Positions 15,795 to 17,994 of a stretch of 64,000 bases of DNA are shown one piece after another (the stretch's first letter is position 1; each line of letters begins with the position of its first letter). The notes below the pieces were generated by a model. The model worked only from the letters and a program-made list of their open reading frames with translations, was not told where the DNA came from and did no database searches. The translations under genes were made by a program, and so were the position numbers. Origin of the DNA: a virus; IMG/VR virus record IMGVR_UViG_3300025789_000020. One strand, written 5' to 3'.

Positions 15795-16949
15795 ATGAAA
15801 ATCTATGAAATAATCTCTGAACAACAAACACAAGAAGGTCTAGCCGCTGATATATTAGGTGGTATTGGAAGTCTTGGGTTCAAAGCCGCTAAGGCATTCC
15901 ACGGAGATGAACCACTGATTAAAAAAGGTGCCCAAGAGCTAGCAGACTTTGCTAAAACTCGAAATACTACAGTTGCCGCTGCCGCTAAAGATCTAGCTAA
16001 AAAAGATGCCGCTGAAATTGCGCATTATGCTGAGAAATATAAAGTTAGTCCCGAAGAAGCTGCCAAGGCTTTAAACAAACGTCCAGACCTTGCTGACAAA
16101 GTACTTGCTCAAGCTAAAACAGACAGTGGACTTAGAACCGTTGGACTAGGTAAACTAGTTGGCATGGGCAAATTGGAAATGATCAAAGAAGGTGGTAAGA
16201 AGTTAGCCAGCCTTGGATTTGATGCAGCCTATCTTTATGAATTATGGTCTCCAGCACTTGAGTATTATAATCATATGAAAGATGCTGAAGAATGGGTCAA
16301 AGCAGGAAAAATTCCTCCTGGATATGAACAGTTTAAAGATGTTACTGAATGGTACAATGCTTACCGTCAGCGTGAAATGCAAATCCTAATTGGTCGTGAA
16401 ATATCAAACTTTGCAGTGGCTAAGATTGCTAAAATACCAGGAAATATTCTTGGTGGATTCTTTACTAAGATGGGTGCTGAAAAATTAGGAAAAGCAGTTT
16501 CAGGCCTAGGAAATCAACTAGTTGGTACAGTTGCATTAAGTATGTTTAACAATAGTGATGTAGCCAAAGGTATTGCAGAAGGTATGGCCGGATCGTTCTT
16601 TGGTATACAAGATTTTGTTGGTGCAAAAGGTGTACAAGTATTAGATGCATTAACACCTGAGTTTATGAAGAGTGTTAAACAAGGTCCTGTTACTACACCT
16701 GCAACAACTCCAGATAGTACACCTGCCGCAAGCGGAACTACACCTACACCTACTAACGGAACTCCTGCAACAACTCCAGCCGCTGGACAGGGAGCTACAC
16801 CTACTGCCGCAGGAGGGCAACCAGAATTACTAAGCGGGTTTAAATTAGCACCAAATGCTAGTCCAATAGCGCAGTGGAAAGATATTGGTACTGGATGGAT
16901 GCAAGATCCTAAAACTGGACAACGTGCATTGAAAGCACAATTAAATTAA
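15795..16949 (+). CDS. Hypothetical late protein, probable internal head/ejection protein
   Basis: N-terminus MKIYEIISE resembles the T4 capsid-targeting sequence MKTYQEFIAE; Ala/Lys helical body, Pro/Thr linker; late promoter. Confidence 0.5.
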   Translation: MKIYEIISEQQTQEGLAADILGGIGSLGFKAAKAFHGDEPLIKKGAQELADFAKTRNTTVAAAAKDLAKKDAAEIAHYAEKYKVSPEEAAKALNKRPDLADKVLAQAKTDSGLRTVGLGKLVGMGKLEMIKEGGKKLASLGFDAAYLYELWSPALEYYNHMKDAEEWVKAGKIPPGYEQFKDVTEWYNAYRQREMQILIGREISNFAVAKIAKIPGNILGGFFTKMGAEKLGKAVSGLGNQLVGTVALSMFNNSDVAKGIAEGMAGSFFGIQDFVGAKGVQVLDALTPEFMKSVKQGPVTTPATTPDSTPAASGTTPTPTNGTPATTPAAGQGATPTAAGGQPELLSGFKLAPNASPIAQWKDIGTGWMQDPKTGQRALKAQLN

Positions 16950-17179
16950 AGAAGTGGTAGACCAGTATCTTCAACTGATTTAATATTTTCTTTAATTATT
17001 TCATAAGCGGCTCGGCGATCGTCGTAGCTGTAGGTGTACATTAAATCATTTACTGTAACACCACCCCGCATGTACCAGCTAATTCTAAATAATTCTTCTT
17101 TGAATTGTTTTATTTCTGTATCAAGCCTAACTAGACGTTCTTCAATCTCAAAGGGTGTGAGACCAATTAGGCTTATGCG
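16946..17179 (-). CDS. -1-frame extension of the gp26-like chaperone (gp51/gpT-like), probably expressed by programmed frameshift
   Basis: 77-codon open frame RISLIGLTPFEIEERLVRLDTEIKQFKEELFRISWYMRGGVTVNDLMYTYSYDDRRAAYEIIKENIKSVEDTGLPLL* with no start/SD at its 5' end; entered through T TTT TTC at 17185-17179. Confidence 0.75.
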   Translation of the reverse strand, partial: RISLIGLTPFEIEERLVRLDTEIKQFKEELFRISWYMRGGVTVNDLMYTYSYDDRRAAYEIIKENIKSVEDTGLPLL

Positions 17180-17994
17180 AAAAAATTTGAATTATCTAGC
17201 TCAATGCTAACTTCGTTATCACGGTCGCAACTTTTGCATTTAACTTTATAGTTAGGCAACAACCAAGTTTTTTGATTTTCTTCAATTTGTTTTTTAATTG
17301 CATCAAAAACAGTCTTGTCGCAATTTTCTAACCATTCTTTAATATGTCCGCGTTCAGTTACATTAGTAGTTTCGACTTCAACACTTTCTACACAATCGGT
17401 AATCATGTCGTTTTGTATAATCCCAATAGCAGTAAACAGCTCGTTAACTTTTTTCTGCTGTTCAGTTGCGTCAGTGATAGCTTCAACTTGACTTAATTGT
17501 TGTTGCAATTGGAAATTTTTAATGTTAACATCTGTACTTTGCTTGTAGTTCAATGGTCTAATCTTAATCACTAGATTGTTGATAACAACACGATTATCAA
17601 ATTTACAGTTTGAATAGTGTTCAATAGCTTTACCTAGATCTAAATCATAATCATTTTCAGCACCGCACCCTGGGCAATTATGTGTAACAGCCATCATGTT
17701 ACCATAGGTGGCAATTCTAATAGCAGTGAACAACAAGTTAGTGTCAAGCGTACTAACATCCCATCCATTTTTAATACTAGGACAGCAACTTTCTAGTACC
17801 TTTACTGTGCTTTCTCCACTTAGCAACGCATCAGGAGTGCGTATAATAATTTCGTCCATACCTGTCATACCAAATACAGGCATACTTTCAGTATTACCGG
17901 TTAAAGATCCAGATTCGTTGTAAATGCCTTTACTGGCTAGACTAATAAAGATCTTAGGTTGTCTAAAGTATTGTTGCAGAGGATTATTGGCCAT
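17173..17994 (-). CDS. gp26: Baseplate hub / tape-measure assembly chaperone (T4 gp26-like)
   Basis: NPLQQYFRQPKIFISL, MTGMDEIIIRTPDALL, AIRIATYG, two CxxC (CPGC, CKSC) and terminal NFFA, typical of the T4-like gp26 family. Confidence 0.75.
   Translation of the reverse strand: MANNPLQQYFRQPKIFISLASKGIYNESGSLTGNTESMPVFGMTGMDEIIIRTPDALLSGESTVKVLESCCPSIKNGWDVSTLDTNLLFTAIRIATYGNMMAVTHNCPGCGAENDYDLDLGKAIEHYSNCKFDNRVVINNLVIKIRPLNYKQSTDVNIKNFQLQQQLSQVEAITDATEQQKKVNELFTAIGIIQNDMITDCVESVEVETTNVTERGHIKEWLENCDKTVFDAIKKQIEENQKTWLLPNYKVKCKSCDRDNEVSIELDNSNFFA

Follow-up and report, generated by a model that had tools for sequence, protein, structure and literature searches.

A single gp26-like gene of an uncultured T4-like phage very probably encodes both a gp26-type and a gp51-type protein through a −1 frameshift

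The stretch of DNA filed as IMG/VR virus record IMGVR_UViG_3300025789_000020, 64,000 nucleotides in length and referred to in the following as the window, originates from an uncultured T4-like phage and carries on its minus strand a late gene related to gene 26 of T4. Judged from the sequence of this gene and of its relatives, it very probably makes a gp26-type as well as a gp51-type product, the latter by a −1 slip of the ribosome on the heptamer U UUU UUC close to its 3′ end; on the same grounds, the reality of a programmed −1 frameshift is strongly supported. An earlier, sequence-only reading of the window had proposed such a frameshift at this place and likened it to the G/GT pair of lambda. 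The evidence rests on the invariance of the slip site, a covarying RNA stem downstream of it, a −1 frame that is conserved from its first residue, natural in-frame fusions of both parts, and the architecture of T4 gp51. The coordinates of all features in the window are compiled in Table 1.

The predicted short product (P0001) belongs to Pfam family PF12322, "T4_baseplate", with E = 8.2e-17 and a score of 62.1 bits (cut-off 24.5) for residues 61-272, and it matches phrog_150, "baseplate hub", in PHROG (E = 2.2e-18). It is marked by two CxxC pairs and a C-terminal Phe-Phe, with C107, C110, C253, C256, F271 and F272 invariant in alignment A4; the corresponding residues of T4 gp26 read CTC...CPEC...EFFELL. 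Its AlphaFold2 model reached a predicted local distance difference test (pLDDT) score of 86.7, and a BFVD fold search with this model returned gp26/gp51-like hub proteins only. The nearest cultured relatives of the protein, at 23-31% identity, are jumbo myoviruses, namely Atu_ph07, Phosso, the RaK2/121Q group, PA5oct, XacN1, and others; at the nucleotide level, distant-mode blastn of the locus against cultured phages gave no match.

The 3′ end of the gene reads TCA AAT TTT TTC GCA TAA. The heptamer T TTT TTC lies within it in the canonical X XXY YYZ phase with respect to the 0 frame, and both its coordinates and its phase agree with those given in the sequence-only reading. Heptamers of the type H_HH.U_UU.Y, including U_UU.U_UU.Y, rank with the −1 motifs of highest efficiency in E. 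coli (PMC4066793). For comparison, a set of 51 distinct genes was assembled from 42 IMG/VR loci (42-90% identity), nine cultured jumbo phages, and a second uncultured clade, with protein identities spanning 22-90%. The sequence T TTT TTY occurs at the Phe-Phe motif in every one of these relatives, in jumbo phages and metagenomes alike. The codon preceding the Phe pair ends in T throughout (51/51), drawn from eight codons for seven amino acids, the first Phe is always encoded by TTT (51/51), and the second is encoded by TTC in 49 of the 51 genes, in which TTC accounts for only 20% of the other Phe codons. The synonymous sites are held fixed against codon bias. The 0-frame stop follows 1-10 codons past the heptamer.

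The heptamer extends beyond this set. It stands one codon before the stop in 75 of 75 distinct gp26 genes from IMG/VR cyanophages as well as in S-PM2 and KVP40, the gene ends of P-SSM2, S-PM2, and KVP40 reading (AGT/TCT/GAT) TTT TTC G.A TAA, so that the conservation among homologues, which had been named beforehand as a check, turned out to be complete in the sequences sampled. T-even phages served as the control: slippery coding of Phe-Phe was found in none of twelve T-even-type gp26 relatives, and in T4 gp26 itself the Phe-Phe pair (EFFELL) is encoded as GAG TTC TTT. Longer runs of T are present at the slip site of RsoM2USA (nine T, L052:2268-2283) and XacN1 (seven T, L050:2283-2290), and in these two phages transcriptional slippage could contribute.

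From the C of the heptamer onwards, the −1 frame of the window reads CGC ATA AGC ..., translated as RISLIGLTPFEIEERL...WYMRGG...GLPLL*. It opens just four codons before the shift base, and no ATG, GTG, or TTG occurs in it ahead of codon +36 (ATG at 17071), which lies inside the most conserved motif, WYMRGG. The claim of a 77-codon frame without a start at its 5′ end is thereby confirmed, and the predicted product sizes of 273 and 349 (272 + 77) amino acids agree with those anticipated. In the relatives, the open reading frame (ORF) always occupies the same −1 frame; it opens 2-15 codons ahead of the shift base and comprises 70-82 codons in the jumbo phages and metagenomic relatives and 57-63 in the cyanophages and KVP40. 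Up to codon +14 to +36, the frame is free of ATG, GTG, and TTG in most members, and PA5oct is devoid of any start codon in this frame. In an alignment of 32 sequences (A2), the −1 peptides can be aligned starting with the very residue that follows the slip, usually an arginine encoded by CGN beginning with the C of the heptamer. Coding periodicity, measured by column entropy, is found in the −1 frame both before and after the internal Met. A coding signal upstream of this Met, which the sequence-only reading had asked for, is thus seen as periodicity and as conservation from residue 1; since both set in at the slip site, independent initiation at the internal ATG, which that reading had named as a finding that would overturn its proposal, is refuted. 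The AlphaFold2 model of the extension (P0002), with a pLDDT of 88.5, shows a three-helix domain. A promoter and terminator scan gave nothing to suggest an internal promoter for the extension, and its profile retrieved nothing meaningful among PDB sequences.

Four nucleotides past the heptamer begins a stem in which AAGCCTAATTGG pairs with CTAGTTAGGCTT over 12 bp, two G-U pairs included, as had been described from the letters alone. In the window, this stem forms part of the minimum free energy fold (−17.6 kcal/mol, z = −2.98), and 1 of 200 shuffles was as stable. The inner TCTCA/TGAGA hairpin, described together with it, does appear in the same fold; it is, however, not conserved in the relatives. 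The conserved portion is a 10-bp core, 17172-17163 with 17134-17125, beginning 6 nt after the heptamer. In a gap-free alignment of 24 distinct close relatives (A1; core in columns 14-23 with 52-61), pairing of the core positions is close to 100%, three pairs show compensatory changes (UA/AU/GC; GC/AU/UA), the covariation score was reached by none of 500 shuffles, and the true register pairs to 83%, compared with 21-48% in slid registers. Covariation of the stem, another of the checks proposed in advance, is borne out by these compensatory pairs. In this context one should bear in mind that the two arms are at the same time coding sequence for conserved peptide (SLIG and LVRL), which limits the weight of the invariant pairs and leaves that of the compensatory pairs undiminished. 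Stems of unrelated sequence stand at the same offset in Atu_ph07, Phosso, XacN1, PA5oct, and locus L044, and the cyanophages differ in stem sequence as well; P-SSM2 (L093:2190-2260) and S-PM2 (L094:2187-2260) carry unrelated hairpins of 11-14 bp, 5-9 nt past the heptamer, with the ATG of the annotated cyanophage "gp51" situated inside or at the base of the hairpin. The 70 nt downstream of the heptamer are more stable than 95% of segments from the same gene in 25 of the 51 loci. No Rfam family was found at the slip site.

Further support comes from genes in which both parts are joined without any shift. A profile of the extension, searched against 1.84 billion proteins, gave 350 hits, many of them gene-caller fragments of 41-98 amino acids, some of which still start with the heptamer as read in the −1 frame (KFFR...). 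About 18 proteins of 319-351 amino acids with 20-40% mutual identity are encoded by single ORFs and combine the PF12322 domain with the extension, which continues in the same frame behind it. Their junction, ...LDLDxSxxFR.KLI..., can be aligned gap-free with the predicted −1 product of the window, ...LDNSNFF/RISLI..., which establishes in which direction and at which position the shift occurs. One of these fusions lies in the metagenomic relative Ga0116227_10001555 (L088), which has no slippery site and where a portal gene and an 824-aa tape-measure-like gene are followed, divergently, by two tandem PF12322 genes, the first without the tail and the second with the tail attached through the non-slippery junction ACA CGT TTT CGT. 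The tail-less paralogue (L088:9018-10001, plus strand) has lost all four zinc-ribbon cysteines, which the tailed paralogue retains.

In T4, the proteins gp26 and gp51 are the products of separate genes, correctly so described in the sequence-only reading, and both match PF12322, gp26 with E = 8.8e-64 and gp51 with E = 3.9e-52 over residues 1-201 of 249. It follows that gp51 is a paralogue of gp26 with a C-terminal tail of ≈ 48 amino acids. T4 thus has two PF12322 genes; one each was counted in Atu_ph07, RaK2, PA5oct, 121Q, XacN1, and a 223-kb relative of the window, and a single one also in P-SSM2, S-PM2, and KVP40. T4 gp26 has no extension, and gene 25 follows directly. A further annotated product of this locus is gene 26′ (L046:2803-3090), read from an internal in-frame start and giving 95 amino acids that correspond to the C-terminal part of gp26; by this annotation T4, too, makes nested products from gene 26, by a different route.

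The tie between the extension and the tail of gp51 runs through the cyanophages and KVP40. P-SSM2, S-PM2, and KVP40 have a −1 ORF of 57-60 codons after gp26, annotated as "gp51 baseplate hub assembly catalyst", and the KVP40 record mentions the similarity of the small ORF to the C-terminus of T4 gp51; this similarity of the short ORF is already known from GenBank annotations. In hhalign comparisons, the −1 ORFs of the cyanophages and KVP40 matched the tails of T4-type gp51 with 95.5% probability and E = 1.5e-8, the profile of the window-type and fused extensions matched the combined tail profile of T4, cyanophages, and KVP40 with E = 2.3e-4, and the full-length fused family matched the gp51 family from end to end with E = 6.4e-5. 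The tail-only global score was 14.8, compared with 3.2 ± 2.3 for 200 column shuffles, none of which scored as high (0/200). Earlier hhalign runs had been negative with a single gp51 sequence and weak (E = 0.023) with a tail alignment of nine sequences. The match between extension and gp51 became convincing only with the broader profiles and with the cyanophage and KVP40 sequences as a bridge; the extension profile found no match in the six-frame translation of the T4 genome, so that the link to T4 cannot be reached by a plain search with hidden Markov models. The suggestion that the downstream frame is gp51-like, together with the profile comparison advised for its examination, has found support, on the one hand from the make-up of gp51 as PF12322 plus tail, and on the other from the tail matches of the cyanophage and KVP40 −1 ORFs (E = 1.5e-8) and of the window-type extension (E = 2.3e-4). 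In the precomputed Pfam annotation of gp51 homologues (P0159-P0250), a second family, PF28602, is listed beside PF12322; it presumably represents the gp51 tail.

The following course of events is envisaged. Most ribosomes would pass U UUU UUC without a shift, incorporate Ala, and terminate at the TAA, releasing a protein of 273 amino acids equivalent to T4 gp26. A fraction of them would be held by the stem starting 4-6 nt downstream, upon which the tRNA-Phe in the P site (on UUU) and in the A site (on UUC) would slip back by one base and re-pair with UUU UUU; the shifted ribosomes would read CGC as Arg and go on for 77 codons, to give a protein of 349 amino acids composed of PF12322 and a three-helix tail, the architecture of gp51. 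Two decodings of one gene would in this way furnish two related hub-assembly proteins in a fixed ratio, for which the T-even phages employ the paralogous genes 26 and 51, and the frameshift would set the ratio of the short to the long product. We infer the slipping itself and its efficiency, and likewise a role of both products as chaperones in the assembly of hub and tape measure, the latter from the literature on T4, where gp26 and gp51 are hub assembly chaperones and gp51 is absent from the particle (PMC3004832).

Every sampled T4-like clade outside the T-evens proper appears to make the long form by slipping on U UUU UUC. This suggests that the separate genes 26 and 51 of T4 are the two-gene version of the same device, duplicated and free of the frameshift; T4 and L088 provide at least two cases in which the pair has been resolved into separate genes. 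Taken to its full extent, the proposal would state that gp51 of the sampled T4-like clades outside the T-evens proper (jumbo phages of the RaK2/Atu_ph07/PA5oct type, uncultured freshwater and marine relatives, cyanophages, and KVP40) is a −1 extension of gp26, that gp26/gp51 are the counterpart of lambda G/GT, that the T4 genes are a duplicated derivative, and that the cyanophage gp51 of 57 amino acids are mis-annotated C-terminal domains. In this comprehensive form it is tentative, and we consider it slightly more apt to fail than to hold.

It has to be asked whether the downstream frame might simply be a separate small gene, a "short gp51" whose translation starts at the gp26 stop, through translational coupling or reinitiation, or else at the internal ATG (MRGG...), with the T-run doing nothing but encoding Phe-Phe. 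Such a small ORF is indeed annotated as a gene of its own in Phosso, Turkey5, 121Q, P-SSM2, S-PM2, and KVP40, with an ATG overlapping or adjoining the stop, an ATG, GTG, or TTG stands at codon 1 or 3 of the −1 ORF in 75 of 75 cyanophage loci, and some database entries are standalone proteins of 70-75 amino acids starting with Met. The window and most relatives, however, offer no start until codon +36, in the middle of WYMRGG, PA5oct offers none at all, and the internal ATG is not preceded by a Shine-Dalgarno sequence. The slip site marks the onset of both protein conservation and codon periodicity, and the ATG of the cyanophages is buried in a hairpin. Moreover, a separate gene would leave unexplained the fixed third-position T, the rare TTC, the covarying stem, and the in-frame fusions, and as an account of the locus it is unlikely. 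A slip could also take place during transcription, RNA polymerase adding one U in the T-run and thereby bringing the two frames into register in some of the mRNAs. The resulting protein would hardly differ from the one made by a ribosomal slip, and the run is a homopolymer of six T in most members, seven in XacN1, and nine in RsoM2USA. Runs of six are short for efficient slippage of bacterial RNA polymerase; furthermore, the element has the exact phase and composition required for a tandem slip, with Z being C or T only, and a covarying stem that follows at 5-6 nt is the hallmark of slipping by the ribosome and not by the polymerase. This route is regarded as very unlikely.

An artefact or gene decay would mean that a single fused gene has been split, either by an error in sequencing the homopolymer or by a frameshift mutation of recent date, and a one-base insertion in the T-run would in fact fuse the frames, just as fused single-ORF homologues exist. 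The same two-frame layout, however, recurs across many clades, in isolates as well as metagenomes, with more than 120 distinct sequences showing it, the 0-frame stop always lies within 1-10 codons, and the fused forms make use of a different, non-slippery junction (ACA CGT TTT CGT), which makes an artefact or a decaying gene extremely improbable. Initiation at the internal ATG, sequencing artefact, and pseudogene were all rejected on the grounds given above for each.

Several observations weigh against a −1 ribosomal slip as the common origin of a gp51-type product. The Phe-Phe pair is itself a conserved protein motif, present also in T4 (EFFELL), and accounts for some of the conservation but not for the synonymous sites being fixed; the sequences compared are phylogenetically related, and their counts overstate independence. 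No strong stem was found within 70 nt in RaK2, Turkey5, and one marine clade, so that the stimulator, unlike the heptamer, is not universal. The similarity of the window-type extension to the gp51 tails is only modest (E = 2.3e-4; tail-only P = 0.007). Finally, an ATG stands 1-3 codons into the −1 ORF, annotated as a separate small gene, in Atu_ph07, Phosso, Turkey5, 121Q, the cyanophages, and KVP40; in these ATG-bearing clades independent initiation may occur beside or instead of slipping, and dual expression is possible.

A frameshift of the lambda G/GT type in tail assembly chaperones was reportedly described by Xu, Hendrix and Duda in 2004 (Mol Cell 16:11; cited in PMC9024508). The likeness of the window to it lies in a −1 slip on X XXY YYZ within the final few codons of the first ORF, an extension ORF lacking a start of its own, an N-terminal domain shared by both products, and the nature of the gene as a late gene of tail morphogenesis. 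The differences are, however, considerable: the window gene belongs to PF12322, a family of 210-300 amino acids with a zinc ribbon, whereas the known chaperones have ≈ 110-140; it is divergent from the tape-measure-like gene and has no tube gene before it; and in the T4 system, genes 26 and 51 count as hub assembly factors. No chaperone homology of the gp26 fold or sequence was detected among the PDB or BFVD matches, Foldseek against the PDB gave no match at E ≤ 0.001 for either the gp26-like or the extension model, and a wide VIA-align search matched generic helical hairpins only. Of the G/GT equivalence put forward in the sequence-only reading, the part that stands is two predicted products sharing an N-terminus through a −1 slip; the same-strand order of tube and tape-measure genes is missing in the window, as is detectable homology to the chaperones. 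The recoding logic is the same as in lambda G/GT, by analogy only, and "coats the tape measure" is to be taken in the same sense; the gp26/gp51 frameshift is accordingly filed as a variant, in a different protein family, of the phage tail-assembly frameshift.

The gene order of KVP40 (L180:1643-5386) and P-SSM2 (L181:1608-4973) comes nearer to that of lambda. A tube-family gene (phrog_45, E about 1e-39), gp26, the −1 ORF, and a large gene of 529-656 amino acids follow one another on the same strand, a suggestive resemblance to the lambda order of tube, G, T, and tape measure in which the large gene would take the place of the tape measure; this gene had no functional PHROG hit and no significant BLAST similarity to T4 gp29, KVP40.0326 included. 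The "gp51" of P-SSM2, S-PM2, and KVP40 shares with the extension of the window the −1 frame, T TTT TTC one codon before the stop, and a hairpin 5-15 nt downstream; unlike the extension of the window, it is annotated as an independent gene of 55-57 amino acids with an ATG, and it is shorter and closer to the T4 tail. With T4 itself, the agreement lies in the short and long products of the window, which reproduce the architectures of gp26 and gp51, whereas T4 genes 26 and 51 are separate, divergently transcribed, and lack a slippery site, and the extension of the window differs from the gp51 tail by its length (77 versus ≈ 48 amino acids) and an extra central helix. Outside the phages, −1 frameshift sites are found in bacteria in dnaX and in orfA/orfB of the IS3 family. 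The site in the window resembles these in its H_HH.U_UU.Y heptamer, a 3′ stem at 5-6 nt, and a nearby 0-frame stop; it differs in that no upstream stimulator resembling a Shine-Dalgarno sequence is evident and in that its cargo is a virion-assembly protein.

The surroundings of the gene are those of a T4-like phage. An AGGAG ribosome-binding site lies 5′ of the ATG of the gp26-like gene, and the upstream box TATAAATA would act as a promoter, judged by the T4 late promoter consensus. The sequence-only reading had pointed to an adjacent tape-measure-like gene; an 815-aa gene does adjoin, with a match that is weak, in divergent orientation, and without significant similarity to T4 gp29 by BLASTP, and owing to this negative outcome its identity as tape measure relies on weak PHROG hits and on position. 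The order of portal, large gene, and gp26 is retained in Phosso, Turkey5, RaK2, and L088. In L088, the portal gene (L088:3596-6481, minus strand) encodes 961 amino acids and contains an intein (PF14890, E = 1.3e-15) with an HNH endonuclease. On the other side of the gp26-like gene, a converging ORF of 384 amino acids has no match in Pfam or PHROG; as its stop codon overlaps that of the extension, the −1 ORF fills a gap that would otherwise be 224 nt of non-coding sequence. Elsewhere, the window holds head genes for a T4-type portal, a prohead protease, and a major capsid protein, together with other T4-like genes for a gp6-like wedge, a gp5-like hub, a gp55-like late sigma factor, and gp46/47-like nucleases.

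Table 1. Coordinates of the gp26-like gene, its predicted recoding elements, and neighbouring features in the window
Feature	Position	Strand	Remarks
gp26-like 0-frame ORF, 273 aa (P0001), predicted short product	17994-17173	minus	ATG at 17994, TAA 17175-17173
Slippery heptamer U UUU UUC (TTTTTTC), X XXY YYZ phase	17185-17179	minus	Phe-Phe, residues 271-272
0-frame stop TAA	17173-17175	minus	one codon past the heptamer, at the stem base
Stimulatory stem-loop (predicted)	17123-17174	minus	5′ arm 17174-17163, 3′ arm 17134-17123
−1 frame extension, 77 codons + stop (P0002)	16946-17179	minus	stop TAA 16948-16946
T4-type late promoter box (putative), upstream of the gp26-like gene	18024-18031	minus	read from sequence
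815-aa protein, weakly tape-measure-like, divergent from the gp26-like gene	18057-20504	plus	phrog_33360 (tape measure), E = 1.6e-6
T4-like portal gene, after the 815-aa gene	20514-22262		Portal_T4, E = 6e-109
384-aa ORF converging on the extension	15795-16949	plus	stop codons overlap by 4 nt (16946-16949)

In the full-text literature searched, which included the PA5oct omics papers, the PRFect paper, the P1 paper, and the T4 tail review, no description of a frameshift in gp26/gp51 of T4-like or jumbo phages was found, most subscription journals lying outside its coverage, so that an earlier mention is possible. To our knowledge, T4-like phages stand apart from the otherwise near-universal pair of frameshifted tail chaperones. 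T4 is the reference model for the assembly of contractile tails, within which gp26 and gp51 are poorly understood (Leiman et al. 2010, PMC3004832). What the present analysis adds is that gp51 equals gp26 plus a tail. The annotation would be corrected in many genomes, in which the −1 ORF is either missing or called as a gene of 41-75 amino acids, and a clean natural example would be at hand of a frameshifted gene and a duplicated pair as alternative solutions to the same need. If the proposal is true in its comprehensive form, the conserved tail-assembly frameshift of long-tailed phages would extend to the T4 lineage, and a concrete hypothesis for the function of gp51 would result. The tail is predicted to carry an activity specific to the long form, and the ratio of short to long product is predicted to matter.

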